Source: a phage
Direction: 5' to 3' (one strand)
Sequence record: PX068456.1
DNA length: 64,000 bases
The notes under the pieces are model-generated. The model did no database searches, was not told the DNA's origin, and worked only from the letters and a program-made list of their open reading frames with translations. Shown here piece after piece: positions 28,044-43,204 of this stretch (position 1 is the stretch's first letter; every line of letters begins with the position of its first letter). The position numbers were made by a program, and so were the translations under genes.

Positions 28044-29204
28044 ATGTTTACAGTATTCGGCAATCAAATCTTCCTGCGTCAGAAGTCTGGTACAGATATT
28101 GAAGAAATTCCAGCAGGAACTTTTGGTGTAGGTGTTACTCAAAGTGGCGAGTTCTTCCTGTATCCTAAAAATGATATGGAAGTCCCTTCAGTAACATACG
28201 GTGATACTGATGATAAATCAGAACGTATTATCAAGACGTTCCTTAGCCGCAAAGGTAAAAACACAGGTGTTCTCCTTGAGGGTACGAAAGGTAGCGGTAA
28301 AACTTTGCAAGCTAAAATGTTGTCTTCTGCTCTTCGTGAAATGGGTATTCCTACTATTTCTATCGGTAGTGCTTTTAATGGTGAAGGCTTTATCAATTTT
28401 ATGTCTAAAATCACACAACCTGTGATGATTATGATTGATGAATTTGATAAACTGTATGCTGAAAAAGATGCACAAGATGGTTTGCTTACCCTGCTGGATG
28501 GTGTTGGTGGTTATGACAAGCTGTTTGTATTGACTAAAAATGATGGTTATGTATCAGAATTTTTGCGTAATCGTCCTAGCCGTATTTTCTACAGTTTTAG
28601 CTATAAGAAACTACCTAAAGCTACTATGGATGATTATCTGGCTAAAAATCTGGAGAACAAAGCCTTCTTACCAGATTTTGAAACGCTTTATAATCTCTCC
28701 GTGGATTTGAACTTTGATATTGTTCAGTCATTAGTAGAAGAACTTAACCGTTATCCTAATGACAAATTCTCTGATGCACTTGCATTAATGGGTATCAGTA
28801 TTACTGAACACCGCTATGCTGCAAAAGAAGTTAAACTTCTGAAAGTTAACGGTGTAGATCGTACAGCAGATGTTTCGTCAGACACCGATATTGACGGTAT
28901 GACAGCACAAGGTTTGTTTAGCGGTAATCGTTATGTTGTAGCTGTAGATCATAAGTCAGGAGAAGAGCATCTTCCTGAAATGGAAGGGATTGTTACCGTA
29001 GAAGATAAAGATGAAGAAGGTGACTACTACTGGGGTGTAGACCGTATCTTGCTAACGTATGATGAAAAACACATTCGTACAATGGGTGGTGACGGTTATC
29101 ACTTTATGTTCACCGATGATAAAGGTAACAACATTGAAGTTGTTATTAAAAACAAAGAACGTAAAAACTACACAGAGTATGTGTTTGGTGGTCGTTCTTA
29201 CTAA
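28044..29204 (+). CDS. AAA-family ATPase (paralogue of 12937..14064)
   Basis: Walker A GTKGSGKT, Walker B IMIDEFDK; shared N-terminal region with minus-strand paralogue. Confidence 0.65.
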   Translation: MFTVFGNQIFLRQKSGTDIEEIPAGTFGVGVTQSGEFFLYPKNDMEVPSVTYGDTDDKSERIIKTFLSRKGKNTGVLLEGTKGSGKTLQAKMLSSALREMGIPTISIGSAFNGEGFINFMSKITQPVMIMIDEFDKLYAEKDAQDGLLTLLDGVGGYDKLFVLTKNDGYVSEFLRNRPSRIFYSFSYKKLPKATMDDYLAKNLENKAFLPDFETLYNLSVDLNFDIVQSLVEELNRYPNDKFSDALALMGISITEHRYAAKEVKLLKVNGVDRTADVSSDTDIDGMTAQGLFSGNRYVVAVDHKSGEEHLPEMEGIVTVEDKDEEGDYYWGVDRILLTYDEKHIRTMGGDGYHFMFTDDKGNNIEVVIKNKERKNYTEYVFGGRSY

Positions 29205-29209
29205 GTGAT

Positions 29210-29238
29210 AAAAGGAGGCGAAAGCCTCCTTTATTTAT
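29210..29238 (+). terminator. intrinsic terminator AAAAGGAGGCgaaaGCCTCCTTTATTTAT
   Basis: GC stem plus T-run. Confidence 0.55.
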
Positions 29239-29250
29239 ATGGAGGGTATT

Positions 29251-29442
29251 ATGGATCATTATTTTGTTTTTAAAGATAAAGTTGATACCGCAGGTGGTCA
29301 CGTTGCTAAAAATGATCGTGACATTAAAGAAGTATTAGGAGATTTGATTAACATTTTAGAACAAAAAGAGTTGCTTTTAGATAAGGATATTGCTAGACTT
29401 CTGGGTGTGGGGCTAAGTGACATACAAAGATTACCATTCTAA
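29251..29442 (+). CDS. hypothetical small protein (63 aa)
   Basis: ORF track frame; start at ATG 29251 after GGAGGG. Confidence 0.4.
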   Translation: MDHYFVFKDKVDTAGGHVAKNDRDIKEVLGDLINILEQKELLLDKDIARLLGVGLSDIQRLPF

Positions 29443-29453
29443 AGGGGAAGAAA

Positions 29454-29609
29454 ATGCTTACAGATGATGAATATAAAGCTATCCAGGAAAAACTAACGGA
29501 GCTTGAAATTCTTGCTGTCAATATTAAAGATCAATCACATGCTGGAAAGTTACTACATCAAGAGATCAATAAAATTAAGCAGATGATATTCTTTTGGACG
29601 GAGGATTAA
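29454..29609 (+). CDS. hypothetical small protein (51 aa)
   Basis: hand-translated; AAAGGGGAAGAAA RBS. Confidence 0.35.
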   Translation: MLTDDEYKAIQEKLTELEILAVNIKDQSHAGKLLHQEINKIKQMIFFWTED

Positions 29610-29611
29610 AA

Positions 29612-30268
29612 ATGACTGTTAAGCATATTTCTTTTGATGTATGGAATACTCTTATTACTGCTAATCCTTTGTATGCAGAAGAACGCAACAAGGTTATTGC
29701 CGAGTATGCCTCTTGTTCTGAGGCAGAAGCAGCTACCGTATATAAAGAGGTAAAAACTCTCCTGGATTTAAAAGCAGAAAAAGGCATTTGTGGAACGTCT
29801 AGGAATGCTTGGGAAACACTTTCTGCTCGTTTGAACATTGATCTTGATAAAGTAGATGGGTTAAAAAGAGACTGTTTAGCAATGTTTATAAAACATCCTC
29901 CAATATTGAACCCTGAGCTTTGCAAGAAGTTGGAAGAGCTAAGTTCAACCTATTCTTTGAGTATTAAGAGCAATACTAATTTTGTACCAGGTAGTTTCTT
30001 AGCTGTATATTCTGGCTTAACAAAATTACCATTTGATTTTATGCATTTTTCTGATGAGTTTTGCTTGTGTAAACCAGATCCTAGGTTTTTTAAACTCTCT
30101 TTTGATGAAATGGTAACGTTTGATCTCGCACCAGAGGAGATTTTACACGTTGGAGATAGTTTGATTTATGATGGAAAAGCTGTTGACATAGGGATGAAGT
30201 TCTGTCATATTACTAATCCAGAAGACTTGTTGGCTAAACTTAAAAAAGAGGAACTTATTAATGCGTAA
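29612..30268 (+). CDS. HAD-superfamily-like hydrolase (218 aa)
   Basis: N-terminal ISFDVWNTLI (motif I-like, second Asp replaced) and C-terminal HVGDSLIYDG (motif IV-like). Confidence 0.45.
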   Translation: MTVKHISFDVWNTLITANPLYAEERNKVIAEYASCSEAEAATVYKEVKTLLDLKAEKGICGTSRNAWETLSARLNIDLDKVDGLKRDCLAMFIKHPPILNPELCKKLEELSSTYSLSIKSNTNFVPGSFLAVYSGLTKLPFDFMHFSDEFCLCKPDPRFFKLSFDEMVTFDLAPEEILHVGDSLIYDGKAVDIGMKFCHITNPEDLLAKLKKEELINA

Positions 30269-31118
30269 TCAAATTCAACATTTTGCTAATACTTTTACTA
30301 ACCTGAAGGAAGCAAAATTTAACATTGCAGATTATTCCAAACTAAAGTTTGGTAGTAACCAGGCAGCAAAAAGAATGGGACGCATTCTGGCTGAAAGTTT
30401 CTTTTCTAAATATGAAGAACGACTAGTAAATGAAAGTTTTGTTGTTATTCCATCTCCATACAACTATGTGAAAAATGCAGCTACAGTGTTATCTGAACAT
30501 TTTGTAGATCACCTCAACTACCTAATCTCTATCAAAGGAGGTAAAGCAGTAGAGTGGGATATCGTTCATCGTAAAGTGAGTTATATCAATGATTATGGAT
30601 TTCTTAGCAAAGAAGATCGTAAGGCTTTGATCGATGGTGACACTTTCTCTATCAATCGTGATTTCTGGGGTAATAAAACTCTGATTTTCATTGATGATGT
30701 TAATATTACAGGAACACACGAAGAAAAACTTATTGAAATTTTAGACAAAGAAGGTGTTGAAAACGATACGTTTTTTCTGTACTTTGCAAAGTATGAAGGT
30801 ACAGAAGCCAACACCGAAGCTGCACTTAACTTCAACTATATCAATAACCTGGCAGCTTTTATTAAAATGATTAAGCAAGAAACTGATGCTAAATGTTTGG
30901 TTCGTCCTATTAAGTATCTAATGAGTCAAAGCGAAGTTGATTTTAAAATTGCACTTTCACAACTTCCTTTGTATTATGTAGAACAACTGTTCTTTGGTTG
31001 CCTTGCAGAAGGTTACAATAATATTGAAAAATACAAAGAGAACTTTGATTTCCTGCGTCAATTTTTTGAAAGCAACATTATCAACAAATCTAATGTTAAA
31101 GGGGATTATTATGTCTAA
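30261..31118 (+). CDS. type I phosphoribosyltransferase (PRTase) family protein (285 aa)
   Basis: PRPP-binding signature LIFIDDVNITGTHEE. Confidence 0.55.
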   Translation: MRNQIQHFANTFTNLKEAKFNIADYSKLKFGSNQAAKRMGRILAESFFSKYEERLVNESFVVIPSPYNYVKNAATVLSEHFVDHLNYLISIKGGKAVEWDIVHRKVSYINDYGFLSKEDRKALIDGDTFSINRDFWGNKTLIFIDDVNITGTHEEKLIEILDKEGVENDTFFLYFAKYEGTEANTEAALNFNYINNLAAFIKMIKQETDAKCLVRPIKYLMSQSEVDFKIALSQLPLYYVEQLFFGCLAEGYNNIEKYKENFDFLRQFFESNIINKSNVKGDYYV

Positions 31119-31827
31119 TAAAGTGACGACTTTCGGAGATCCTATCACCAATATTACAGAAAAAGATTTTGGGCGTGTAGCAACAGATAAAGATGGTGTC
31201 TTAAGAATTCGTGTACAAGGCATTACAGCACAGGATGAATATGCTGTGTATGTTTCAGGTCTTAATTATATTGATGATCGCATCACACAAAACTTTGCAC
31301 TGATCGGTGGTGTAGAGAAAATGTACTGGGAAGATGAAATTGTAACAAGTTATCCAGCAGGTATCATTGAGGTATACGGTGATCTTTTAGCAGCAGCCGA
31401 GAGAGGCGATATCGACGCTATAGCACACTGCTGTAACTGTTTTTGCACTATGGGTAGTGGTATTGCACCAAAAATTAAAAGCAAGTGGCCTGGTGCGTTT
31501 AAAGCAGATTGTGCCACTAAACGTGGTGATTATAAAAAATTAGGTACGTTTACTAAGTATACAGAAAACAATTTGACAATTTATAATTTATATGGACAAT
31601 ATGGTTATAGTCGTCGTGAGGAAGGTAAGCGTGACCTGAATTATGAAGCTATCTACAATGCGTTAGATAGTATGGGAGACGATGTTGTATCTTCAGGCGG
31701 TAAAATTGTAGGTTTACCAATGCTTGGTTGTGGTTTGGCTGGAGGTTCTTGGAATATTGTAAAACTTATGATCGAAGAAACTCTAGTAAACAAAGGTTTA
31801 AATGTAATTGTTTACAAACTGAAATAA
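31111..31827 (+). CDS. macro-domain protein (ADP-ribose binding/processing) with ~100 aa N-terminal extension
   Basis: GDIDAIAHCCN and GLPMLGCGLAGGSW resemble macro-domain GDIT..DAIVNAAN and P.I.tGvyG motifs. Confidence 0.45.
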   Translation: MSNKVTTFGDPITNITEKDFGRVATDKDGVLRIRVQGITAQDEYAVYVSGLNYIDDRITQNFALIGGVEKMYWEDEIVTSYPAGIIEVYGDLLAAAERGDIDAIAHCCNCFCTMGSGIAPKIKSKWPGAFKADCATKRGDYKKLGTFTKYTENNLTIYNLYGQYGYSRREEGKRDLNYEAIYNALDSMGDDVVSSGGKIVGLPMLGCGLAGGSWNIVKLMIEETLVNKGLNVIVYKLK

Positions 31828-31836
31828 GGAGAAAGT

Positions 31837-32043
31837 ATGGCAGGTGTTTTAGCAGTATTAGGTTGTTTTATTGTTGTATTCTTGATTGTGTTAATCCCTA
31901 GTTGGCTACTGCTTTTAGCATACAACTATATGATTGACATTATCGGTTTAGACTGGCATCATGTTCCTGTAACGTTTTGGAGTGTAGTCTGTGTGACGTT
32001 CATTCTTGCGGTACTTCGTGGTATCTTTCAATCTAACAAATAA
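31837..32043 (+). CDS. small membrane protein (68 aa)
   Basis: ORF track; two hydrophobic helices; RBS AAGGAGAAAGT. Confidence 0.45.
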   Translation: MAGVLAVLGCFIVVFLIVLIPSWLLLLAYNYMIDIIGLDWHHVPVTFWSVVCVTFILAVLRGIFQSNK

Positions 32044-32057
32044 GAGAGGATTTTTAT

Positions 32058-32306
32058 ATGCGTAAAGTAAATGTTGAAGTGCTTGAAAAATTTATAAACA
32101 CTCGTGATTGTACTGTTGGTAAGGTTTATGAGGCTATTCTCCTTGAAGATGGAGATATTGTTCCTGCCCCGTATCACGCCTTTAATGGCCAGGTTAGCAA
32201 AGTGGAAGGTGGTCTTGCTGTTTGCTTTATTGATGATGTAGGTGATGCTGTAGCTTTCCCTATCATTAACAAAGAAGATAAACTTAAAATTACAGAACTG
32301 AACTAG
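32058..32306 (+). CDS. hypothetical protein (82 aa)
   Basis: ORF track. Confidence 0.45.
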   Translation: MRKVNVEVLEKFINTRDCTVGKVYEAILLEDGDIVPAPYHAFNGQVSKVEGGLAVCFIDDVGDAVAFPIINKEDKLKITELN

Positions 32307-32346
32307 TTGACTTTCTTTAAAAACAGTTTATAGTATACGACATAGA

Positions 32347-32365
32347 GCGGAGGATTGTCCTCCGC
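32347..32365 (+). promoter_or_regulatory. stem-loop GCGGAGGAttgTCCTCCGC upstream of TerC-like gene
   Basis: perfect 8-bp inverted repeat, no clear U-tract. Confidence 0.35.
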
Positions 32366-32383
32366 ATTAAAGAGGAGAAAAGA

Positions 32384-33361
32384 ATGCAACTGGGTTTCCC
32401 AATTATTGATGTGGTTGTTTTAGTGGGTATTTTAGTCTTGTCGATTTGTATTGATTTCTTTGGACACAGGGAAAACAAAGAAATTTCATTTAAATCTGCA
32501 ATTGGCTGGTCAATTTTCTGGATTGGGGTATCATTAGCCTACTATGGTTTTGTATACTTCCAACACGGTGCTGATTTTGCGAGCTTGTTCTTGAGTGGGT
32601 ATGTGTTGGAGAAATCTCTTTCTGTAGATAACTTAGTAGTATTTGTGGCAGTATTCGCAAGTTTTGGTATTAAAAGTACACACTTGCAACACAAGATTCT
32701 ACTTTGGGGTATTGCAGGTGCGATTGTCTTCCGAGGTGTGTTTGTAGCAGTAGGTACTTACTTGTTGAGTTTGGGCTGGTATGTTAATATCTTCTTCGGT
32801 GCGGTCATCCTTTTCTGTGCAGCTAAAATGGTATTCGCTGGAGATAATGACGCAGAAGTTGATTACTCTAAACACTGGGCTACTCGCATTGTTCGTAAGC
32901 TGTTCCCTGTATCTGATCAGATGGATGGTGAGAAGTTCTTCACAATCAAAAATGGTGTTCGTGTAGCAACTCCTGCATTGGTTTGTGTGTTTGTAATGGA
33001 AATGGTTGACGTAATCTTTGCAGTAGACTCTGTTCCAGCAGTAATTGCAGTGACACAAGAACCTCTGCTTGTATTTTCTTCAATGCTGTGTGCAATTTTA
33101 GGTCTACGTGCTCTGTTCTTTGTCCTTAGTGTTGCACTGAAATATTTGGTTCATCTGGAGAAAGCAGTTATCGTAGTCCTGGTATTTGTGGGTGTAAAAC
33201 TGATGTATCACCCGTTTGCAGAAACTCTGCACGCAAAAATGAGTTTCCTGCCAGCACACATTGATCCGACGATCAGTATGTATATTGTGTTAGGTACTCT
33301 TGGGCTGGGTGTTATTGCAAGTTTAATCTTCCCTGAAAAAGAAGACCAGACTGTTGCTTAA
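32384..33361 (+). CDS. TerC-family integral membrane protein
   Basis: hallmark EKSLSVDN motif, multiple TM helices, size 325 aa. Confidence 0.7.
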   Translation: MQLGFPIIDVVVLVGILVLSICIDFFGHRENKEISFKSAIGWSIFWIGVSLAYYGFVYFQHGADFASLFLSGYVLEKSLSVDNLVVFVAVFASFGIKSTHLQHKILLWGIAGAIVFRGVFVAVGTYLLSLGWYVNIFFGAVILFCAAKMVFAGDNDAEVDYSKHWATRIVRKLFPVSDQMDGEKFFTIKNGVRVATPALVCVFVMEMVDVIFAVDSVPAVIAVTQEPLLVFSSMLCAILGLRALFFVLSVALKYLVHLEKAVIVVLVFVGVKLMYHPFAETLHAKMSFLPAHIDPTISMYIVLGTLGLGVIASLIFPEKEDQTVA

Positions 33362-33366
33362 TTCAT

Positions 33367-33385
33367 TAAGCCCCTTCGGGGGCTT
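33367..33385 (+). terminator. hairpin AAGCCCCttcgGGGGCTTT
   Basis: GC stem with short T-run after TerC gene. Confidence 0.4.
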
Positions 33386-33400
33386 TGTTGAGGTGATCTG

Positions 33401-33607
33401 ATGGTGGTTTTACGTGTTCTTTGGATTCTGTTTGAAAATATTTGTTTTGCTTTAGGGCTATTTTGTTTGATTTTTATATTGACAACATATATTGATAACC
33501 ATACAATTACTATCAACAGGAACGGAGAACAGATGTATTGTTTCTCTAGAGATTTTAAAAATTGTGTTGAGACTTTAAATGAGAGGGTTACAAATGAAAA
33601 ACATTAA
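33401..33607 (+). CDS. small hydrophobic protein (68 aa)
   Basis: ORF track; RBS GAGGTGA; overlaps next gene start. Confidence 0.35.
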   Translation: MVVLRVLWILFENICFALGLFCLIFILTTYIDNHTITINRNGEQMYCFSRDFKNCVETLNERVTNEKH

Positions 33608-34184
33608 ATCTTTTATTGTTGCAGTTGTTTTAGGCAGTGCATTGCTGGTAGGTTGTGATGATTCTGAAAATGTACAAAACCAACGTTACCAACAAACACC
33701 AAATCAGATGGTAGATGAACAATATGTAAATCAACCTGCACCTCAAGTTGTTCAAGCAGCACCTGCACAACCTTCAACAGTTGTTGTGCAAGGAGGCGGC
33801 AGTGGTTCTTCTGGTGTAGGTGAGTTTGCTACAGGTATGCTTCTTGGTCATATGTTGAGTGGTAATAGTGGCGGTGGTGGTTATAGAGATGGTGGTAGCA
33901 ATACAACAGTTATTAATAACAACGCTGCTCCTACAACTAACAGTAAAGCATATACAACACAAAAGCATAGTTTTTATGATAAACAAGGGAATACATATAC
34001 AACCACTAAACAAAACACAATTAAGCAGCAAAGTGTACAAACGTATTCACGCCCATCAACAACAAAAGTGAATAGTAATTACTCTGCTCGTAAGTCTTAC
34101 TCAAGCCCTATTAGCTCTTATAGTAAGTCTTCGAAAAGTTATTCTTCGTCGAAACGTAGTTTTAGTAGCTCACGTCGTCGTTAA
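33594..34184 (+). CDS. putative lipoprotein with Gly/Ser-rich low-complexity tail
   Basis: signal peptide with lipobox LLVGC; Ser-Tyr-Lys repeats at C-terminus. Confidence 0.5.
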   Translation: MKNIKSFIVAVVLGSALLVGCDDSENVQNQRYQQTPNQMVDEQYVNQPAPQVVQAAPAQPSTVVVQGGGSGSSGVGEFATGMLLGHMLSGNSGGGGYRDGGSNTTVINNNAAPTTNSKAYTTQKHSFYDKQGNTYTTTKQNTIKQQSVQTYSRPSTTKVNSNYSARKSYSSPISSYSKSSKSYSSSKRSFSSSRRR

Positions 34185-34219
34185 TAATTTAATACAGATT
34201 AAATAAGAAGGAGAAACAG

Positions 34220-35071
34220 ATGAAACTAGAAGTTGGTAAAGTGTATCGCCTGGAAGGTTGGATCTTTAATCAAGAAATTCTTGAGAAGAATAAGGATGGT
34301 TTTGAGTTTGTTGGTACTACCAAAGAAAGTATGCACGATGACGAATACTGTAAATTCGTTGGTAAAAATACAGGTCAAGAACAATTTTGCTTTAAAAGCG
34401 CAATCGGTGATTATGCTTCTGTAATGCCAACGCCAGAAAAAACTTCGAAACAATATACTGTCTTTGGTGTAAAACTTGAAGAGCTTGTAGAACACCCACG
34501 TTTTGAAGAGTTTAAGGTTGCTGCAATGTGCAAGCATTCTGAAATTAAGATACATAATTTGTTTGATTTAGAAGATCGGTTTGATATCTTTATGTATGAT
34601 CGCAGGGGAAAGCATTTTGATGCAACGACTTCAAAATTTGCTGCAACAGAGGATATTAAAATCCTTGATGTTGATACCTTTCTTGAGAGTGTATCGTTTG
34701 TATTCATTCCTAAATGCAAAAAACGTAGTGATCATAAACGTGTGAAAGGAACTCCTCGTAAAAAACGTACTGTAAACAAAGCAACTTTGCACTTCACTTC
34801 TGGTGATAAATATACTCTCAAAGGGTTTGAAAGTGTTTTGTATGATGCTGGAACGGGTAATATCAAGTTTATCATTAAGGCAACCTACAAAGGTACGGTA
34901 TTGCACGAAGAGGCTGTTACACTACCTGTATTCGATATCTCTCGTGTTGAGGTACGGGGTGTTAAAGAGTCCTTCGATCTGGATTTCTTAACCACTAATG
35001 CTACTGGTTATGTTAATCTGGAAGCAGATGGAGCATTTATTACTACAAATTATTTAGATATGTTTGTTTAA
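34220..35071 (+). CDS. hypothetical protein (283 aa)
   Basis: ORF track; RBS AAGAAGGAGAAACAG. Confidence 0.5.
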   Translation: MKLEVGKVYRLEGWIFNQEILEKNKDGFEFVGTTKESMHDDEYCKFVGKNTGQEQFCFKSAIGDYASVMPTPEKTSKQYTVFGVKLEELVEHPRFEEFKVAAMCKHSEIKIHNLFDLEDRFDIFMYDRRGKHFDATTSKFAATEDIKILDVDTFLESVSFVFIPKCKKRSDHKRVKGTPRKKRTVNKATLHFTSGDKYTLKGFESVLYDAGTGNIKFIIKATYKGTVLHEEAVTLPVFDISRVEVRGVKESFDLDFLTTNATGYVNLEADGAFITTNYLDMFV

Positions 35072-35139
35072 TACTTAATTTGTGTTATGATGGTGGTACA
35101 GAGGTATCACCATCTACTAAAGAATATGGAGGAAATTGA

Positions 35140-36243
35140 ATGTCCAGTCCTTTTATCAGTGCCGTAAAAAGCAAACCGTCTGAAATGAGTGTATTCACGG
35201 CAACAACAGAAAAAAGTAAGTCTTTGTTTGCTCCAAGTGCTATGGATGCAAGCCCTGTATATGCCCCTGCTGTTGCACGACCTGTACAAATGCTGCCTCC
35301 AATGTCTCGTGAAGAGATTGAACAAGTTGGTGCTGATGCAGGACTTACTCTTCGTAACCTTAATGCTGAAGTGCTTAAACACCAGCGTTCATCTCAGGGG
35401 GATGAAATGAGTGAACGTTTAACTGCACTTATTAAGCAAGCAAAGCAACTTGATCCTAATTCTATTAAACAATCTAAAGGCTTAGGTAAACTAGTTAAGA
35501 AAGTATTAGGTATGAAAGAAGATTTGTTTGGTGAATTTGACACCATCAATAATCGTATTGAAGGTTTGGTAAAGACACTCCAAACAGACTTGAAAAAAGA
35601 AGAAGATTCTTTACGATATCTGCAACGTTTAGAAGAGGCTATTGCAAAATATGCTCTTAGCTTAAACAGGGATATAGAGCTTCTAACAGCTACTTATGAA
35701 AAAGAAGAAGTTCGCCTTAATACACTACCTGAAAATGAAGTAGAAGAGCGTCAACGTACTCGTGATACTATGGATCTGCTTGAAATTCGTATTGCAGACC
35801 TGAAAGCCTTGCGTTTACTGTGTGTTCAGATGGGGCCACGTGTACAAAGTATGCAGAAAGTATCTGCAAGTTTGATGCGATCAGCCCGTAATATTGTGAA
35901 TAATGTTATTCCTGCTTACTCTGCAAACTTTTCTATGTATATTGAAAGTCTACGCCAGAAGAAAGCAGCCGATACACAGAACAATGTACTGAATGAATTT
36001 AATGCGGCTATTGCAATGGGTAGTGATCTGGCTGCACAAAACCAAATTGAAGCTACGCAACTTGCTAATCGTCAAGTATTGGATATTGAAACATTACGTC
36101 GCGATCAAGAAAACTTAGTTAAAATGTTGGAAGAAACTAACCGAATCAACACTGAAGCCCGTGCTGCTCGTATTGATTACATTCAAGAAGTGCAATCTCT
36201 TGAAGATGGTATGATTCAAACTGTTAAACGTGGTCTACTTTAA
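35140..36243 (+). CDS. TelA/KlaA-like toxic-anion-resistance family protein (coiled-coil)
   Basis: size 367 aa, coiled-coil composition and context next to TerC/TerD/vWA; family call by resemblance only. Confidence 0.4.
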   Translation: MSSPFISAVKSKPSEMSVFTATTEKSKSLFAPSAMDASPVYAPAVARPVQMLPPMSREEIEQVGADAGLTLRNLNAEVLKHQRSSQGDEMSERLTALIKQAKQLDPNSIKQSKGLGKLVKKVLGMKEDLFGEFDTINNRIEGLVKTLQTDLKKEEDSLRYLQRLEEAIAKYALSLNRDIELLTATYEKEEVRLNTLPENEVEERQRTRDTMDLLEIRIADLKALRLLCVQMGPRVQSMQKVSASLMRSARNIVNNVIPAYSANFSMYIESLRQKKAADTQNNVLNEFNAAIAMGSDLAAQNQIEATQLANRQVLDIETLRRDQENLVKMLEETNRINTEARAARIDYIQEVQSLEDGMIQTVKRGLL

Positions 36244-36256
36244 GGAGAAATATATT

Positions 36257-36463
36257 ATGAATATTAAAATTTACAAACTGTCTGGTTCTATGATCGCTGT
36301 CCAGTATGACAATGAAGATCGTTATGTTCTCCTCCAGGATGCCTGGTTAGATGATCCTAATGTATTTACTGTCCTGCGAGAACTACGTTCTGTCTATACC
36401 TATTCTTCTAAAGATGGTTTTGATAGTTCAACGATGGAATTGGTAAAAGAGGAGAATGTGTAA
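36257..36463 (+). CDS. hypothetical small protein (68 aa)
   Basis: ORF track frame; ATG 36257 after AAGGAGAAAT. Confidence 0.45.
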   Translation: MNIKIYKLSGSMIAVQYDNEDRYVLLQDAWLDDPNVFTVLRELRSVYTYSSKDGFDSSTMELVKEENV

Positions 36464-36663
36464 TGAATAAAGATATTCACTTAACTCGTGAAGAATTACA
36501 AACCATTATGGAAGATGCTTTCATTGATGGTTGGAAACAAGGTCAAGAGTCAGATTGGTATGATGCCGAAGACTTTTTGTATTATCATATGACTGCACCT
36601 GTAGACGAGCAAACACATTCTGAAACAACTTTGGCTTTAATTGATCTTAAGGCTGGTGTATAA
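36463..36663 (+). CDS. hypothetical small acidic protein (66 aa)
   Basis: ORF track; coupled starts. Confidence 0.45.
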   Translation: MNKDIHLTREELQTIMEDAFIDGWKQGQESDWYDAEDFLYYHMTAPVDEQTHSETTLALIDLKAGV

Positions 36664-37226
36664 TGGGATGTTTTAGTTTCTTGTGCAAAGAGTCTGGTAA
36701 TGCTGCTCTTTCTACCTCTTTCGATGGTTCTCCTTGCTACCTATTTCTTTTGAAAGGTGGTAAAGTTGTTGAAGAGATGTATGGCAATTATGATAGCTAT
36801 GGTAGTGTTTTCTCTAATGAAGAAGATAAACATGGCAATCGTAAAAGATTTAAGTGGTCTATGCCTTGGGAAGAAGTTTGTAATTTGATGTTCTCTTCCG
36901 ATCTTGGAGATGGTATCGCTATGGTATTAGAAGAGCACTTTACAGGTGAGATCCCAACAGAAAGATCTGAAGAAGACCCTAACCAGGGTTGGGGTGATGG
37001 AGAAGAAGATCCAGATTGCTTCTTCAGCACTGAAAATAATAAATTTAAACGTGTTGACAATCCTTACCACAAAGTGCATAATACTTGCATTGAGACAGAA
37101 GAAGACTCAAAGCTAGAAATTGAAGATGATTTAGTTGTAACTATCTCTTTAAACGAGTTGCAAAAGATCACCAGAGAGGCTTTCTATTTAGGCTGGAGGG
37201 CAGGTAAAGGAGAAGACAGTGCTTAA
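36663..37226 (+). CDS. hypothetical protein (187 aa)
   Basis: ORF track. Confidence 0.5.
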   Translation: MGCFSFLCKESGNAALSTSFDGSPCYLFLLKGGKVVEEMYGNYDSYGSVFSNEEDKHGNRKRFKWSMPWEEVCNLMFSSDLGDGIAMVLEEHFTGEIPTERSEEDPNQGWGDGEEDPDCFFSTENNKFKRVDNPYHKVHNTCIETEEDSKLEIEDDLVVTISLNELQKITREAFYLGWRAGKGEDSA

Positions 37227-37488
37227 ATTTAATATCAAAGACGATAAATCAGATGAACCTAAATGTTTTGGAGAACTTGACGCAGGTGATACATTCGTAT
37301 ATTATGTTGCGTATCAAGATTCTGGTTTAGATACGTTCAGAAACTTAGTGTTTATTAAAGTTAATACAAACCAAGCAATGTGTCTGAACGGTTCACAAAG
37401 AGGTCAACTTAGCTGTATTTCATATGATACAGAAATGGTAGAAGTGGATTTAGAAGTTACTAACATTACACTCAGAAAGGAGAAATAA
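37219..37488 (+). CDS. hypothetical protein (89 aa), GTG start
   Basis: ORF track; AAAGGAGAAGACA RBS. Confidence 0.45.
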   Translation: MLKFNIKDDKSDEPKCFGELDAGDTFVYYVAYQDSGLDTFRNLVFIKVNTNQAMCLNGSQRGQLSCISYDTEMVEVDLEVTNITLRKEK

Positions 37489-37489
37489 T

Positions 37490-38284
37490 ATGTCCAATAA
37501 AATCAGTCTTAAAAAACGTCAAGAAACTCTTACTGTATCTCTGCGTAAGAAAAAGATTAACGATGTTGTTCTTCGTGTCGGTAGCGCCTTAGATATTTCG
37601 GGTAGTATGTGTGAGCTGTATCGTGATGGCACTGTTAGTGATTTTGTAGGTAAACTGCTGCCGTTTGGTATGAAGTTTGATGACAATGCACAGATTGACA
37701 TGTGGGCTTTCAATAGTTCTTCTTTTGAACTGCCTCCTGCAACGGCTGATGTGTATGATGATTATGTCGGCTCTTGCATGTCTAATGTTTGCATCAATGG
37801 TGGTACTGCTTATGCTCCAGTAATGCAGGAGATCTATGATACATACTTCGGTAGTGTACCTATGAAAAATATTACACGCGAAGTCGTTGAGTATGAAGAA
37901 GTCCCAGCTAAGGGTTTCCTTGCTAAACTAACTGGTAAAAAAGAACTTGTAGAAGTAACACGTACTGTTGTAGAACAGGTTGTAGATACTGATGCACAAG
38001 TTGATCGTACTCCTGCAATGATTTTCTTCCAAACTGACGGGGAAAACATGGATACTTCAGCAGTACGTAGCTTACTGAACAAACACCGCAATACGCCTGT
38101 TTACTGGTTTATGGTTGGTGTAGGTAATGCAAACTTTAAATTCCTGAAAGACTTGGCAAAAGAGTACGATAATGTTGATTTTATCGGTATTGCAGATTTG
38201 TCCTTGTCTGATGAAGAACTTTACGATAAATTGTTATCTGAAGAGTTTGGTGAGTGGGTTAAAAAATTCGGAGCAAAAGCGTAA
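37490..38284 (+). CDS. von Willebrand factor A (vWA) domain protein, TerY-like
   Basis: MIDAS motif LDISGSM plus GGTAYAP; adjacent to TerD. Confidence 0.6.
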   Translation: MSNKISLKKRQETLTVSLRKKKINDVVLRVGSALDISGSMCELYRDGTVSDFVGKLLPFGMKFDDNAQIDMWAFNSSSFELPPATADVYDDYVGSCMSNVCINGGTAYAPVMQEIYDTYFGSVPMKNITREVVEYEEVPAKGFLAKLTGKKELVEVTRTVVEQVVDTDAQVDRTPAMIFFQTDGENMDTSAVRSLLNKHRNTPVYWFMVGVGNANFKFLKDLAKEYDNVDFIGIADLSLSDEELYDKLLSEEFGEWVKKFGAKA

Positions 38285-38293
38285 AAAAAACGC

Positions 38294-38322
38294 TTGACTT
38301 TGTAGAAAAGATTAGTAAAATA
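38294..38322 (+). promoter_or_regulatory. sigma70-like promoter TTGACT-17-TAAAAT upstream of TerD gene
   Basis: hexamers read directly. Confidence 0.45.
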
Positions 38323-38358
38323 GACAACGTAAATTAACAACAAAGGAGATAATAAATT

Positions 38359-38955
38359 ATGACTCAGAAAATTTCCCTGAAAAAAGGTTCTAGCGAAAAA
38401 GTTTCTCTGAAAAAGATCGCACCAGCACTGAAACGCATTCGTCTGGAATTCTCTTGGAAATCTAACGAAAAACTGGATCTGGATGTTAGTGCTCTGATTT
38501 GCCGACACAATGCATCTGGTCTGCCGGAACTGTTGTCTCCTCGTCACCTGGTGTGCTACGCACAGAAATTTGATCCTGAACGTTCTACTTTTGCAGGTGA
38601 AGATGTTCGTGATGGTGTAGGACAGATGGAGCAGATTGATGTTACACTGGATAATATCTCTGCTGAAGCACAGGAAATTGCATTCGTAATTACTATTGAT
38701 GACGAAACGGGTAAGAAACGCCTTGGTCACGCTACCGAAGGTTTCCTTAAAATCTTCGATGATGAACGTAATGTTGAACTGCTGGACTTTGACTTCTTGG
38801 CTCCAGAACTTGCAGGTAACACCATTTGCCACGTTGCCTCCCTGGTGCGAGAAGATAGCGAATGGAAACTGAAAGCATATGGTGTAGGTAAAGCTGGGCT
38901 TGACATTTACGATGTAGTTAAAGCGTTTGGCGCTGGCGAAGATTGGTTCGAGTAA
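38359..38955 (+). CDS. TerD-family stress protein
   Basis: N-terminal ISLKKG..VSLKK, DLDVSA, FAGEDVRDG, FVITI and C-terminal GEW-type signature match TerD architecture. Confidence 0.65.
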   Translation: MTQKISLKKGSSEKVSLKKIAPALKRIRLEFSWKSNEKLDLDVSALICRHNASGLPELLSPRHLVCYAQKFDPERSTFAGEDVRDGVGQMEQIDVTLDNISAEAQEIAFVITIDDETGKKRLGHATEGFLKIFDDERNVELLDFDFLAPELAGNTICHVASLVREDSEWKLKAYGVGKAGLDIYDVVKAFGAGEDWFE

Positions 38956-38975
38956 TACATCAAGTAATAAATCAT

Positions 38976-38991
38976 AGCGCCCTTCGGGGCG
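38976..38991 (+). terminator. hairpin GCGCCCttcgGGGCGC
   Basis: GC stem after TerD gene. Confidence 0.4.
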
Positions 38992-39019
38992 CATATTTGA
39001 AATAAAAGAGGAGAAAACA

Positions 39020-39622
39020 ATGAGTATTACTTTAGAAGGTCAAAAACTTATTCGTAGCGGCAATTTTCTTGTAGATATTGACAACAATGAAGATTATGCT
39101 TTAGAAGTTAGTGATGTGCTGTTTGATGCTTTGCAGTCTGGTTTCAATTTTGAAGTTTATGAAGTAATCCGTGGAACTAAACTCAGAGAAACCCTTGGAT
39201 CATCTAGTGATGTTTATTCGGCAATCTGGCAATATTTCGGGTTAATGGAGGGTAAGACATATCTTACTGATAGTTATTCTGAAGATGTTGTTTATCTTGA
39301 TATGGAAGAGTTTCGTCGTCTGTTCAAAAGTGAAGAAAATGAAGAAGAGGGTGAACTTTTTGAAGGAATTACTCTCGAAGGTAATGTTGAAATTGTGTAT
39401 AAAGCAGGAAAAACATTCCACTTACGCGAGAACGGTAAAGCAAAAGTTGATTTTGTAAACAAGACAGTGACAACTGAACATAATTATCTTAAAGATGGTC
39501 AACCAGCTTTTGAACGTGTAAAAATTAAATTTAAAGTGTTGTCTGCACTAGTTACGGATCAAGAACGTATTGATTTTGTAGAAGATGGTGTAGTAACTCA
39601 TACAAAGGTTTACAATATCTAA
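39020..39622 (+). CDS. hypothetical protein (200 aa)
   Basis: ORF track; RBS AAAGAGGAGAAAAC. Confidence 0.5.
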   Translation: MSITLEGQKLIRSGNFLVDIDNNEDYALEVSDVLFDALQSGFNFEVYEVIRGTKLRETLGSSSDVYSAIWQYFGLMEGKTYLTDSYSEDVVYLDMEEFRRLFKSEENEEEGELFEGITLEGNVEIVYKAGKTFHLRENGKAKVDFVNKTVTTEHNYLKDGQPAFERVKIKFKVLSALVTDQERIDFVEDGVVTHTKVYNI

Positions 39623-39714
39623 CAGGGTGTAAGAGGGGGATTATCCCCCTCCACTTGCAAAATAGCCTCTTCTGTGTTACAATAAAAGTTCGTTTAACAA
39701 AATAGGAGGCAAGT

Positions 39715-40224
39715 TTGTCAATAAAAACCTTTGTCGCAATTGCGTTACTATCCTTAACTGCTTTTACATTTACACCTGTTGTGGCGCAAGCCGAAGCTGC
39801 AAACGTAAAAACTGCTAAAGTAGTTCACAAGTGTACAAAGCGTGATAGTAAAGAAAATCTATTAGCTTGTGCAATCTATGCAGAAAGTCGTAATCAAGGA
39901 AAGCGCGGTATGTCTGCTGTTGGTAATGTAGTATTGAATAGGGCGAGAGATTCATATTTCCCTGATACTATAAAAGAAGTTTTGTTTCAAAAAGGACAAT
40001 TCTCTTACACGAAGACATTCAACGTTATGGAACACGATAAGTGGAAAGACGCTAAAGCTATAGCAGAACGTCTACTTTATCTCGATAACCATTTTCCAGA
40101 ATTACGAATTGCATTAGATATTACAAAAGGAGCACTATACTTTAAAAAATCTACAATAAGAGCACACTGGGAAAAAGATATGGTTCTAGTGTACCGCTAC
40201 AAAGAACATCAATTCTATCGCTAA
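39715..40224 (+). CDS. SleB-like cell-wall hydrolase with signal peptide (TTG start)
   Basis: CAIYAESRNQG...VGNVVLNRARDSYFPDTIKEVLFQKGQF resembles Hydrolase_2/SleB signature. Confidence 0.45.
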   Translation: MSIKTFVAIALLSLTAFTFTPVVAQAEAANVKTAKVVHKCTKRDSKENLLACAIYAESRNQGKRGMSAVGNVVLNRARDSYFPDTIKEVLFQKGQFSYTKTFNVMEHDKWKDAKAIAERLLYLDNHFPELRIALDITKGALYFKKSTIRAHWEKDMVLVYRYKEHQFYR

Positions 40225-40234
40225 GGAGATATAG

Positions 40235-40513
40235 ATGAAAGATGGCGTTATCGTTGCAAGTTATCTTGTTATTGGTCTTACAGAAGAGGATGTACATTAC
40301 ATTAGGAAACATTTAGAACAGTTTGCAATGATGTTCATCGAAGACGAAGACAATGTGGATGTTTATTCAATTGAAATGATCAATGATAACGTCTATCCTT
40401 GTATAGCTTTACGAGTCGATGAAGATGTTTGGGAACGTTTTTCACGTAGTCACGATAATGTTGAATGTTCTATGGTTATGTCACAAAACAACATACTGGG
40501 AGTGTTACACTGA
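40235..40513 (+). CDS. hypothetical protein (92 aa)
   Basis: ORF track; RBS TAAGGAGATATAG. Confidence 0.45.
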   Translation: MKDGVIVASYLVIGLTEEDVHYIRKHLEQFAMMFIEDEDNVDVYSIEMINDNVYPCIALRVDEDVWERFSRSHDNVECSMVMSQNNILGVLH

Positions 40514-40743
40514 TGGCTGATGTTATTGAAGTTAACTTTAAAACAAAAAAGAAAGTTGATAAGTATACAATCTTAAAAAATATTTGCGTTGTGTGCTTCA
40601 ATTCTGTAATATATGACTCACGTAAGGGCGAAAATGAAAATGAACCTTACATCCAGATTTCTAAAGGTAAAGGGCAGTGTATCTGCAAAAACTGCGCTGT
40701 AGCAATTAAGGAGGTTGTAGATGAAAACCATTGGGATCAATGA
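40513..40743 (+). CDS. small zinc-ribbon protein (76 aa)
   Basis: CVVCF...CICKNC cysteine pairs; ORF track frame. Confidence 0.4.
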   Translation: MADVIEVNFKTKKKVDKYTILKNICVVCFNSVIYDSRKGENENEPYIQISKGKGQCICKNCAVAIKEVVDENHWDQ

Positions 40744-40915
40744 TACTGGTGAAGTTGTAAAATCTTGGGATGATCTTAGTGGTATCCCTACAGATAAACT
40801 GATTAAACTGCGTGATGTTTGTCGTGATCATCTTAACGAAACATATAAAGAGTATATGGAAGCACGAGATCACAGTTTAGCTATCCAAATGGAACTCGCA
40901 AAACGTAATCAATAG
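40721..40915 (+). CDS. hypothetical small protein (64 aa)
   Basis: ORF track; AAGGAGG RBS. Confidence 0.4.
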   Translation: MKTIGINDTGEVVKSWDDLSGIPTDKLIKLRDVCRDHLNETYKEYMEARDHSLAIQMELAKRNQ

Positions 40916-40972
40916 GTAAAACCATTTGGACTTTTTAGTCTAAAAATGCTAAAGTAATAATACGGAGGGAGT

Positions 40973-41536
40973 ATGATATTTCACATAACTCCCTATCTTT
41001 CTGGAGATATTGGAAAAGGTATCAATGACACAATAAGTGTCTTACCAGAAGATAGTTGGATTTGCCTAAGAGACATTGATACAATGTTTCTTCTTCCAGA
41101 ACAACCTGCTTGGTTGGAATCAATAGTCCGTTCAAATCCTGATTTTGATGTTCTTGGTGCATCTTGTAATAGATTGGGATCAACATATCAATTATTTAAT
41201 AATGAAAGAAGTGAAGATCCAAATATATTACACCACATTGAGATTGCAAAAAGAGCACATCTAGAATGGGGAAACTCAGTAGAGGAAGTACCTACAGATG
41301 CTATCTTAGCAGGATTCTTTCTTCTCTTTCGTAAGAGTCTGTGGAATGAAATCCCTTTTGAGGAAAGATCAATACAGTTTGATATAATTTTCTCTAAAGC
41401 ATTACACGCTAACAATAAAAGGCTAGGTTTACTACGTGGGTTATATTTATTTCACACATACCGTTTAGGTAATGATGATCCTAGAAAAGCTGTTTCACAC
41501 CTTTTACATTGTCAAGACATGAATAAAATTATTTAA
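40973..41536 (+). CDS. putative glycosyltransferase-like protein (DxD-type, GT-A-like)
   Basis: LRDIDTMF DxD-like motif; context next to three other glycosyltransferases. Confidence 0.35.
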   Translation: MIFHITPYLSGDIGKGINDTISVLPEDSWICLRDIDTMFLLPEQPAWLESIVRSNPDFDVLGASCNRLGSTYQLFNNERSEDPNILHHIEIAKRAHLEWGNSVEEVPTDAILAGFFLLFRKSLWNEIPFEERSIQFDIIFSKALHANNKRLGLLRGLYLFHTYRLGNDDPRKAVSHLLHCQDMNKII

Positions 41537-41545
41537 GGAGTTATT

Positions 41546-42232
41546 TTGGAAAATACAAAAATTGGTGTTGGTGTTATTACTGTAGGTAAGCGTCCTCTTA
41601 AAGATTATCTTGTGACTGATCCTAATGCTACTTTTGTTGTACAGTATGATCGGGAACGAAAAGGTGTTGCATATGCCCGTAATGAACTGATGAAAAAGTT
41701 TTATGATGAAGGGTATGATTACTGGTTTATTTTTGATGATGATTGCTATCCGGTTGTGCCAGGTTGGGAAACATATTTTGTAAAACAGGCTAAGGAAAAT
41801 GGCTGGGATTTCTTTGGTATGCCTGAATATTTTAAAGATAAAGTAAAAGGTATTGAAGGTGAAGTGGTTATTTGGGAACTAGGTATGTGCCAGTTTGGTA
41901 TGTATTCCCGTGCAGTTATTGAGAAAGCTGGCTATTTCCGTTCATACACCCACGGTTATGGATATGAAGATGCAGAGTGGATTCAGCGCGTTCCACTGGC
42001 AGGTTTGAACCGAGGTATTCACGGCGTACCATGTCCTATTCGAATTATGGCGTTTATCCATCCTGACGATGTGTTTGGAGATAATCCTTTACCTTTTGCA
42101 AATCTGTCAAAAGAAGAGAAAGAACAGGGGATTGGTGTAAACTGGGAACAATATAAACAATCACTGGAGGATCTTCGCAATGGTAAAACTTTTATCTCTT
42201 ATGAGGAGGCTCAAAAATATGGTAAATCCTAA
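41546..42232 (+). CDS. glycosyltransferase family 2-like protein (TTG start)
   Basis: YDYWFIFDDDCYP DxD motif and YGYEDAEW. Confidence 0.5.
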   Translation: MENTKIGVGVITVGKRPLKDYLVTDPNATFVVQYDRERKGVAYARNELMKKFYDEGYDYWFIFDDDCYPVVPGWETYFVKQAKENGWDFFGMPEYFKDKVKGIEGEVVIWELGMCQFGMYSRAVIEKAGYFRSYTHGYGYEDAEWIQRVPLAGLNRGIHGVPCPIRIMAFIHPDDVFGDNPLPFANLSKEEKEQGIGVNWEQYKQSLEDLRNGKTFISYEEAQKYGKS

Positions 42233-43193: not shown

Positions 43194-43204
43194 CAAGGAG
43201 CCAT

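Follow-up and report, generated by a model that had tools for sequence, protein, structure and literature searches.

Do three overlapping genes of a lytic phage, encoding a HAD-like hydrolase, a phosphoribosyltransferase (PRTase) and a macrodomain protein, make up a single biochemical pathway, or do they represent separate modules that have come to lie side by side? The genes occupy positions 29612-31827 of a 64,000-nucleotide stretch of phage DNA (sequence record PX068456.1; referred to below, at its full length, as the window). An initial annotation of the window had tentatively assigned all three to the synthesis or salvage of a ribosylated small molecule, which might counter NAD-depleting immunity, or to the removal of an ADP-ribosyl signal. 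Over the 4.5 kb around the trio, the DNA is 98-99.6% identical to that of phi92-like Escherichia coli myophages, which belong to the genus Justusliebigvirus (subfamily Stephanstirmvirinae) and include W22, ECGD1 and phi92 as well as JohannJBalmer and EmilieFrey from the BASEL collection, and the HAD, PRTase and macro genes correspond to phi92 gp187, gp186 and gp185.

Our analysis points to two functionally separate modules packed head to tail in the Stephanstirmvirinae. The first is a HAD-PRTase pair that would work with Ter proteins encoded downstream, and the second is the macrodomain protein, which would act against DarT2. Taking the statement as a whole, we regard it as the probable reading, with moderate confidence. 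It is built upon what was observed directly: the families to which the proteins belong, their conserved catalytic motifs, the order and fusion of genes, the statistics of gene neighbourhoods and the homology of the macro protein to a T4 gene implicated by experiment. The decisive context is given by the downstream Ter genes (terC, telA, vWA-terF and terD), which were absent from the initial annotation of the trio. Ter loci on clinically important plasmids confer resistance to tellurite, colicins and phages.

The HAD and PRTase genes form a conserved two-enzyme cassette

The three open reading frames (ORFs) lie on the + strand, and the calls of the initial annotation as HAD-like, PRTase and macrodomain proteins were borne out for all three products (Table 1). 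To place the PRTase, we drew its relatives from a 5.8-billion-protein collection, from annotated phages and plasmids, from GTDB genomes and from IMG/VR, and all of the loci fetched in this way were searched with the window's own proteins. In nearly all of the ~55 loci, in phages and bacteria alike, a HAD gene was found directly 5' of the PRTase gene, usually overlapping it. The phage carriers include Phapecoctavirus, Justusliebigvirus-like phages of Klebsiella, Kleczkowskaviridae of Rhizobium, Caulobacter phage CcrColossus and the Xanthomonas jumbo phage XaC1, together with many metagenomic T4-like or jumbo contigs, some of them from IMG/VR. The bacterial carriers comprise Rhizobium and Sinorhizobium plasmids, metagenome-assembled genomes (MAGs) of Bacteroidota, a Hymenobacter plasmid and Pedococcus, and the PRTases of the last two also score above the PF15610 cut-off.

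In addition, 12 of the 150 best representatives of the PRTase family join the two enzymes in a single chain, with the HAD domain N-terminal and the PRTase_3 domain C-terminal. One representative has the order PRTase-HAD-PRTase, and several consist of tandem arrays of two or three PRTase_3 domains. The HAD-PRTase fusions provide strong evidence that both enzymes work together; HAD and PRTase_3 constitute a conserved two-enzyme cassette.

The PRTase is a predicted type I enzyme with an extra helical domain

The PRTase matches PF15610 (PRTase_3, "ComF-like") at 143.5 bits against a cut-off of 28.7 (E=1e-41), with residues 16-265 aligned to profile positions 14-264 of 264. It carries the motif IFIDDVNITGTHEE that the initial annotation had quoted for this 285-residue protein. 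In alignments of 51-55 sequences the acidic dyad and 5'-phosphate loop (D145, D146, T150 and G151) are invariant, as are K29, Y108, D111, R120 and D127, and R104 is nearly so. An AlphaFold 2 model (predicted local distance difference test score, pLDDT, 92.3; predicted template modelling score, pTM, 0.89) has a lower-confidence loop at residues 104-127, which is probably mobile, and an extra, all-helical C-terminal domain spanning approximately residues 197-280. The best fold matches of the core in the PDB are HGXPRT, Helicobacter pylori ComF (7p0h) and PyrR, with template modelling scores (TM-scores) of just 0.3-0.4 because of this extra helical domain. The DD..TG.T loop, the other invariant residues and the confident type I model together suggest that the PRTase is catalytically competent.

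The family is a rare one, as a profile search of 1.84 billion cluster representatives returned only 858 clusters of PF15610 relatives, 259 of them at E<=1e-30. This bears on the most ordinary explanation of the pair, nucleotide salvage by an orotate PRTase and a generic nucleotidase, which is the label "putative orotate phosphoribosyltransferase" of several phage records taken at face value, and which would suit the nucleotide-metabolism genes nrdD and nrdG adjoining the locus. The initial annotation had set an ordinary purine or pyrimidine salvage enzyme against its own proposal. We found a different picture: an NCBIfam search of the PRTase, covering PyrE, Hpt, Apt, Upp and others, returned no family at E<=0.01, and a profile search of the PDB gave one marginal match (E=0.98), confined to the PRPP (5-phosphoribosyl 1-pyrophosphate) loop. 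The low fold score to HGPRT, the added helical domain and the rarity of the family point the same way, as does the absence of homologous DNA from 5,426 complete E. coli genomes searched by blastn with the trio, a result which also implies that the trio is not a recent pick-up from the host. Salvage is accordingly the least probable of the explanations that we considered.

A further possibility, raised by the initial annotation, is that the locus reconstitutes or salvages NAD+ in the face of NAD-depleting immunity; the PRTase would then supply a pyridine mononucleotide, while ADP-ribose products would be recycled by the HAD and macro proteins. Phages are known to possess NAD+ reconstitution pathways of this kind, NARP1 (Adps and Namat) and NARP2 (Nampt and Nmnat). 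The points in favour are weak ones: Rhizobium phages have a Nudix gene 3' of the pair, macrodomains handle ADP-ribose, and sequence by itself leaves nicotinamide or nicotinate as a possible acceptor for the PRTase. NAMPT, NAPRT and QPRT are, however, type II PRTases, and Adps is PRPP-synthetase-like, whereas the phage enzyme has a type I, ComF/HGPRT-like fold. Neither the type II class nor the Adps class appeared among the top 50 listed PDB fold matches, in the PDB profile search or in NCBIfam, so that the structural comparison with NAMPT and with PRPP-synthetase-like Adps suggested by the initial annotation brought out no resemblance. Furthermore, no NMNAT, NAMPT or Adps gene was found in the window, going by the annotation of relatives across its whole length and by Pfam scans of the neighbouring genes, and the recurrent partners of the pair are Ter proteins, which have no obvious tie to NAD salvage. 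We therefore hold this explanation to be very unlikely.

Some members of the family are considerably larger than the phage enzyme. Two or three tandem PRTase_3 domains are present in representatives P0296, P0312, P0358 and P0384 (921-1153 residues) and in P0269, P0290 and P0346 (538-571 residues). The C-terminal segment of P0358 contains, when read by eye, a canonical DxD-like motif, "LLDYDDTL".

The HAD partner carries a conserved tryptophan in motif I

The HAD protein scores 25.9 bits against PF00702, just below the cut-off of 26.4, and homologues from other loci reach 33-35 bits. It also has several matches to NCBIfam HAD-IA subfamilies, all below their cut-offs, a match to PHROG 14393 ("hydrolase") and a match to PDB entry 2om6 (E=3e-9). 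Motifs II (SNT), III (KP) and IV (GDSxxxD) are intact. In motif I the nucleophilic Asp is kept and a Trp occupies the position two residues further on (D+2), that of the general acid/base, giving DxW in place of DxD.

The initial annotation had correctly read FDVWNT at this site and had taken it to be degenerate. An alignment of ~20 homologues argues against decay, as the pattern S-[FL]-D-x-W-x-T-L runs through the phage and bacterial HAD proteins of the family, together with conserved SNT, KP and H-[VI]-G-D...D motifs, and the DxW signature recurs in the HAD-PRTase fusion proteins. Judged from these sequences, FDVWNT is a conserved signature. The nearest solved structure to the phage protein, 2om6 (Pyrococcus horikoshii, "probable phosphoserine phosphatase"), has an identical motif I, FDVWNTL; thus an experimental structure of a DxW HAD protein already exists.

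HAD phosphatases and mutases use the Asp two residues past the nucleophile as their general acid/base; dehalogenases, phosphonatase and P-type ATPases have another residue there. A conserved Trp at this position, combined with a metal-binding motif IV that has been kept, suggests phosphoryl chemistry in which the substrate has a good leaving group or the aspartyl-phosphate is long-lived, as opposed to the activity of a plain 5'-nucleotidase.

Ter genes accompany the pair in phages and bacteria

The HAD-PRTase pair lies 1.3 kb upstream of terC, and genes for TerC, TelA, a TerF-type vWA protein and TerD follow on the same strand as the trio within 7 kb, all of them above Pfam thresholds. PRTase, HAD, TerC, TelA, vWA and TerD proteins taken together make up the gene set of Ter systems. 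In line with this, the comparative genomics of Iyer et al. 2021 (PMC7824862) described Ter systems that include PRTase and HAD "signal biosynthesis" enzymes, found them in phages too, and predicted the Ter-linked synthesis of a "nucleoside-like metabolite". As quoted in later papers, Anantharaman, Iyer & Aravind 2012 likewise assign to Ter systems a biosynthetic module for a "nucleoside-like metabolite". For the HAD and PRTase, the ribosylated small molecule of the initial annotation agrees with this prediction.

The association extends well beyond phi92-like phages. We found Ter genes (TerD, TerC, TelA or vWA-TerF) within 10 kb of the pair in all Stephanstirmvirinae loci, in 7 of the 19 other distinct viral loci (L005, L044, L048, L050, L052, L053 and L057) and in 7 of the 10 bacterial loci from outside the Rhizobiaceae (L013, L030, L031, L033, L034, L035 and L037). 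On the Hymenobacter plasmid, the genes divergent from the pair encode three TerD and two vWA proteins, a PP2C phosphatase and a kinase, and in Pedococcus and Bacteroidota MAGs the pair adjoins TerD/vWA genes. When searched with PADLOC, the HAD, PRTase, TerC, TelA, vWA and TerD proteins gave no match to a defence system.

A second type of neighbourhood raises the possibility that the pair acts on nucleic acids, either as a ComFC-like binder of single-stranded DNA or RNA or as part of an RNA-repair or RNA-modification system. In XaC1 and two metagenomic phages (L003, L006 and L011), the pair is found between an RNA ligase gene and a gene of the DUF2828/DUF7788 (Ro/TROVE-like) type, in an RNA-repair/translation neighbourhood that includes genes for a CCA-adding enzyme, Nudix, 2H-like and PTH2 proteins and a ribosome-hibernation factor. 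The "ComF-like" naming of the Pfam family and the presence of H. pylori ComF among the best fold matches are compatible with such a role, and direct nucleic-acid interaction was raised for PRTases of mobile elements by Iyer et al. 2017 (PMC5512222). The invariant PRPP/5'-phosphate loop and acidic dyad are, however, those of a true phosphoribosyl transferase, strict pairing or fusion with a HAD-IA enzyme of small-molecule type is better suited to metabolite chemistry, and the neighbours in the window are Ter genes, not RNA-repair genes. For these reasons a role on nucleic acids appears improbable to us.

The phage set of enzymes is a reduced one. Of the other components of Ter systems, TerB, TerA/Z, ATP-grasp, PRTase_2/TRSP and StiP/PELOTA proteins were not found among the scanned ORFs of the interval 28044-44149.

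Two of the downstream products merit separate comment. At the expected site of the calcium-binding GDN.TG..GDDE-type motifs, the phage TerD protein reads FAGEDVRDGVGQMEQ, which is divergent by eye, so this TerD may be a non-metal-binding variant. Between terC and telA lies a gene for a 201-residue protein with an N-terminal signal-like segment that ends in a lipobox-like LLVGC and is followed by a long low-complexity region rich in Q, S, G and T. From these features it may be a lipoprotein and a candidate for superinfection exclusion. Weak homologues near the pair in L003 and L048 may merely reflect composition.

The macrodomain protein resembles T4 Tk.4 and is rarely found with the pair

The call of a macrodomain, for which the initial annotation had named a profile search as the check, was upheld by PF01661 (31.3 bits against a cut-off of 22). 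DarG profiles also match, at 5e-13 (NCBIfam) and 1e-13 (PADLOC), over the macro part of DarG only; against the NCBIfam DarG equivalog the protein scores 48.9 bits, compared with a cut-off of 250, and covers only profile positions 4-147 of 338. Its C-terminal 150 residues have PDB sequence matches to SCO6735 (5e3b), BT1257 (2fg1/2afc), TARG1 and DarG, and in structural superimpositions the model reaches a target-normalised TM-score of 0.90 to TARG1 (root-mean-square deviation 2.1 Å), 0.82 to BT1257 and ~0.8 to DarG. By BLASTP it is 30% identical to T4 Tk.4 over 139 residues (E=1e-17). The tk.4 gene, since renamed adfM, proved to be the only gene that T4 requires to grow on a DarTG2 host (preprint, bioRxiv 10.1101/2025.11.20.689424).

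To cleave ADP-ribose linked to thymidine in DNA, SCO6735 depends on His24, Asn27, Gln85 and Gly128 (PMC9411070). The equivalents in the phage protein are His106, Asn109, Gln163 and the GCGLAGG loop (G206/G208), and in an alignment of 44 phage homologues these columns vary little or not at all. Lys84 of TARG1 (K80 of DarG) and Asp125 are replaced by Gln163 and Ala, as they also are in SCO6735 and T4 Tk.4. Together with the homology to Tk.4, this pattern of residues makes the macro protein a likely anti-DarTG2 factor, one that would remove DarT-type ADP-ribose from DNA. Removal of an ADP-ribosyl signal, as the initial annotation had it, is thus close to the best reading for the macro gene on its own, with a DarT-type DNA mark as the likely target.

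N-terminal to the macrodomain is an extension of ~85 residues, somewhat shorter than the ~100 first estimated, which is limited to phi92-like phages and one related metagenomic cluster. Since it has no Pfam match and is modelled with a pLDDT of only 56-76, we assign no function to it.

A rival reading is that the three proteins work one after another on a small molecule that is ribosylated or derived from ADP-ribose, in which case the macrodomain might, for example, trim a 1''-phosphate or an ADP-ribosyl adduct off the product of the PRTase and HAD enzymes. Both gene junctions are 8-nt overlaps of the form ATGNNTAA, namely ATGCGTAA between HAD and PRTase (30261-30268) and ATGTCTAA between PRTase and macro (31111-31118), with a purine-rich stretch resembling a ribosome-binding site a few bases 5' of each. 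These features make translational coupling of the trio plausible, as the initial annotation had proposed. Justusliebigvirus and Phapecoctavirus share the order HAD-PRTase-macro, with 65% identity between their PRTases and 48% between their macro proteins, and in phi92-like phages the macro protein has gained an N-terminal domain specific to that lineage. Moreover, small molecules such as ADP-ribose-1''-phosphate are substrates of some macrodomains, and Poa1p is among the fold matches of the macro protein.

Against this stands the wider distribution of the genes. The macro gene adjoins the PRTase gene only in the Stephanstirmvirinae. It was found adjacent to the pair in none of the 19 other viral loci and in none of the ~25 bacterial loci, although a macro homologue lies 6-8 kb from the pair in two of those viral loci. 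When the macro protein was searched against the 150 best PRTase family representatives, among them the 12 HAD-PRTase fusions, it had no match. Relatives of the macro protein are present in 2,973 phage records, compared with 157 that have the PRTase, making them ~20 times more widespread and nearly always free of a PRTase gene; in T4 itself there is no PRTase_3 gene in the neighbourhood of tk.4. Within the Stephanstirmvirinae, the macro protein of the relatives is a stand-alone domain of 157 residues, a 14-nt gap separates its gene from the PRTase gene in phage ukendt, and in Klebsiella phage FKP3 an HNH homing-endonuclease gene sits exactly between the two (L008 9858-10511), so that PRTase-macro coupling is not required in that phage. 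We consider a single three-step pathway to be unlikely on this evidence, and in this respect our conclusion departs from the initial annotation.

A model of two modules

We propose that the two modules serve different ends. In the first, the type I PRTase would attach 5-phosphoribose from PRPP to a base-like acceptor and the DxW HAD partner would perform a phosphoryl-transfer step on the product of the PRTase or on its precursor, the outcome being a nucleoside- or nucleotide-like metabolite. The pair would thereby represent the minimal small-molecule-synthesis arm of Ter-type systems. Its metabolite would be made in the early/middle programme together with TerC/Alx, TelA, the TerF-like vWA protein and TerD, and would work with these phage proteins, which are thought to form a membrane-associated complex. 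The likely pay-off would be a remodelling of the envelope or of ion handling in the infected cell, or the exclusion of competing phages or colicins; the known phenotypes of plasmid ter loci are of the same kind. In the second module, the macrodomain, acting as an ADP-ribosyl glycohydrolase, would remove DarT2-type ADP-ribose from thymidines of phage DNA, allowing replication to proceed in hosts that carry DarTG. For the first module we infer what the PRTase and HAD enzymes act on and what they make, the order of their steps, any link of the product to the Ter proteins and the purpose; for the second, the target of the macrodomain in this phage.

Several considerations weigh against this proposal. 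The coupling of the macro gene to the PRTase gene and the retention of its position across two genera would suit a functional tie between the modules. A full-text search of the literature for PF15610 or PRTase_3 returned no match, and no biochemical report on any member of the family was found. The Trp at D+2 argues against an efficient, simple 5'-nucleotidase step and is in our view the weakest point of a scheme in which phosphoribosyl transfer is followed by dephosphorylation: with the usual general acid/base gone, it may be a mistake to speak of "dephosphorylation to a nucleoside".

The link to Ter genes is not obligatory either, since the pair also occurs without them nearby, as in the loci with RNA ligase and DUF2828/Ro-like neighbours, and alone on Rhizobium plasmids. 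Moreover, the classical enterobacterial ter locus uses different enzymes from those of the phage, the set on a Chimaeribacter ter plasmid being PRTase_2+TRSP, StiP+PELOTA, ATPgrasp_Ter, a Hydrolase_3-type HAD protein and an HpcH aldolase, and tblastn of the phage PRTase against 72,556 plasmids found only those of Rhizobiaceae and one Hymenobacter plasmid, with no enterobacterial ter plasmid among them. We therefore regard the phage pair as a distinct, minimal Ter-linked module. As for the macro protein, the evidence on AdfM comes from a preprint on a homologue that is just 30% identical, and macrodomains of the TARG1/DarG/SCO6735 class also act on protein-linked ADP-ribose, while other macrodomains act on ADP-ribose-1''-phosphate.

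A more far-reaching alternative is that the pair makes a non-canonical nucleoside or nucleotide, either as a signal for the phage TerD, TelA and TerC proteins or as an antimetabolite directed at competing phages, and that in phi92-like phages the translationally coupled macro protein, with its lineage-specific N-terminal domain, was recruited to process a ribosyl-linked intermediate, besides or instead of reversing DarT marks. We give this little credence. If true, it would amount to a virus-run small-molecule system borrowed from a bacterial stress or immune system, with new chemistry at both enzymatic steps. The missing general acid of the HAD enzyme suggests a reaction other than simple dephosphorylation.

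Returning to the two-module proposal, no new kind of system is involved. Both modules belong to families already described by comparative genomics (PF15610 and the Ter analyses in the case of the HAD and PRTase), and the annotators of the BASEL phages had already labelled the trio HAD-like, phosphoribosyltransferase and macrodomain. What is noteworthy is the unusual, strictly conserved substitution in the HAD active site and the occurrence of a compact Ter-linked pair in tractable E. coli phages. What the Ter-linked PRTase and HAD enzymes make, and how ter loci act, have been standing questions since 2012. The phi92-like phages carry the smallest version of the Ter module, two genes, sometimes one fused gene, beside four Ter proteins. 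As lytic phages of E. coli, these carriers are readily grown in the laboratory, and several belong to the BASEL collection, so that the old question becomes directly testable. In addition, a likely anti-DarTG2 gene bears on the prediction of host range, as phi92-like phages are used in therapeutic cocktails.

The gene block around the trio

The trio sits in an early/middle block on the + strand that also contains genes for NrdD/NrdG (anaerobic ribonucleotide reductase), helicases, primase and DNA polymerase (Table 1). A terminator-like hairpin is the probable upstream boundary of its transcription unit, and the annotation of relatives has terminators at the same place. With the promoter match 5' of terC, it hints at a unit running from ~29239 to 32306. 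As the promoter and terminator scans gave no enrichment over shuffles, these matches serve as weak hints of boundaries only.

Table 1 Features in and around the HAD-PRTase-macro locus, in positions of the window
Feature	Position	Strand	Details
AAA-type ATPase, second paralogue	12937-14064	-	
AAA-type ATPase	28044-29204	+	directly 5' of the trio's transcription unit
Terminator-like hairpin	29211-29232	+	9-bp stem, T-rich tail; 3' of the AAA ATPase gene; consensus match only
Two small ORFs, phi92 gp189 and gp188	29239-29442 (67 aa), 29454-29609 (51 aa)	+	gp188 stop 2 nt before the HAD start
HAD-like ORF (HAD-superfamily IA-type hydrolase, first gene of the HAD-PRTase cassette)	29612-30268	+	218 aa from ATG; motif I SFDVWNTL
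PRTase ORF (type I phosphoribosyltransferase, PF15610)	30261-31118	+	285 aa; PRPP/5'-phosphate loop DDVNITGTH intact
Macro protein ORF	31111-31827	+	238 aa
N-terminal extension of the macro protein	31111-31365	+	~85 aa; predicted small beta-rich domain, low-moderate confidence
Macrodomain, ALC1-like/TARG1/DarG/SCO6735 class	31366-31827	+	homologue of T4 Tk.4/AdfM
Two small genes, phi92 gp184 and gp183	31837-32306	+	gp184 68 aa, hydrophobic; gp183 82 aa
Sigma-70-like promoter match	32307-32334	+	TTGACT-16-TATAGT; directly 5' of terC; consensus match only
TerC/Alx-family integral membrane protein, phi92 gp182	32384-33361	+	Pfam TerC 1e-38; TIGR03718 322.8 vs 246.4 bits
Candidate lipoprotein	33579-34184	+	201 aa; between terC and telA
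TelA-family protein, phi92 gp178	35140-36243	+	PF05816, 5e-34
vWA protein, TerF C-terminal type, phi92 gp173	37490-38284	+	PF10138, 1e-38
TerD-domain protein, phi92 gp172	38359-38955	+	PF02342, 5e-28
Four consecutive genes, glycosyltransferase-like	40973-44149	+	directly 5' of the primase/helicase gene

The product of gp184 reads as a two-helix membrane protein, and its gene is kept 3' of the macro gene across the Stephanstirmvirinae. On the other side of the trio, Phapecoctavirus and the Klebsiella Justusliebigvirus-like phages have, in place of the 51-residue ORF, a gene for a protein of ~200 residues directly 5' of the HAD gene (L007 7745-8350 and L008 7742-8347; also in L042, L043 and L045). 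Annotated as a MazG-like pyrophosphatase in one record and with no Pfam match, it may represent an additional, third component of the nucleotide-chemistry module, and a dispensable one. The AAA-type ATPase gene further upstream has a paralogue elsewhere in the window, 47% identical over the N-terminal 254 residues, and GenBank labels both "ATPase or Zn metalloprotease". The copy 5' of the trio is kept in Justusliebigvirus-type loci and was not found in the Phapecoctavirus locus.

The four consecutive genes at the downstream end of Table 1 carry the BASEL labels of glycosyltransferases or "disaccharide synthase". One matches TAGT (TET-associated glycosyltransferase) below threshold, at 23.3 bits for a cut-off of 27.5, the third has only sub-threshold matches of GT1 type, and the last is barely above the cut-off for Glyco_trans_1_2 (25.8 against 25). 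Either phage DNA or a host glycan is a possible target of their products. Across the whole window (1-64000), scans for tRNA genes and for Rfam families at gathering thresholds gave no matches, and the Rfam scan at that threshold found no Mn/PRE-type riboswitch before the Alx-like terC gene. GC skew changes sign at ~16 kb and ~53 kb, coinciding with changes in gene orientation.

Comparison with known systems

The phage PRTase has in common with ComFC and with the type I PRTases of purine and pyrimidine metabolism a type I core and a DD..TG.T PRPP loop, to which the likeness in sequence is limited. Unlike ComFC-type proteins, it has an extra C-terminal helical domain and no zinc-finger N-terminus, and it differs from both groups in its obligate pairing or fusion with a DxW HAD enzyme. 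The resemblance of the trio to NARP1 and NARP2 is one of setting, in that phage genes are involved, one of them using a phosphoribosyl donor, with an ADP-ribose-handling domain nearby; the folds and families differ, and no PRPP-synthetase-like, NAMPT-like or NMNAT protein was detected at the trio.

The macro protein belongs to the same macrodomain class as T4 Tk.4/AdfM, and both are encoded by stand-alone, "antitoxin-like" orphan genes in a lytic phage. Its gene differs from that of T4 in its apparent translational coupling to a PRTase gene, and the protein differs from Tk.4 and nearly all other homologues in its additional beta-rich domain at the N-terminus. With SCO6735 it shares a Gln in place of the catalytic Lys of TARG1 and DarG, as well as the His, Asn and Gly positions, and unlike DarG it is without a C-terminal DarT-binding domain. 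AdfB of phage ICP1 was considered as a further comparison and rejected, as it is a 77-residue DarT binder and not a macrodomain.

The closest counterparts of the wider locus are the Ter-dependent stress-response or anti-phage systems: as in these, genes for TerC, TelA, a TerF-type vWA protein and TerD share a strand in the phage, and those for a PRTase and a HAD enzyme lie next to them. Whereas the enterobacterial ter locus possesses a full set of enzymes, the phage has only the pair of PF15610 and HAD-IA (DxW) proteins, and a system carried by a lytic phage would act in the interest of the virus.

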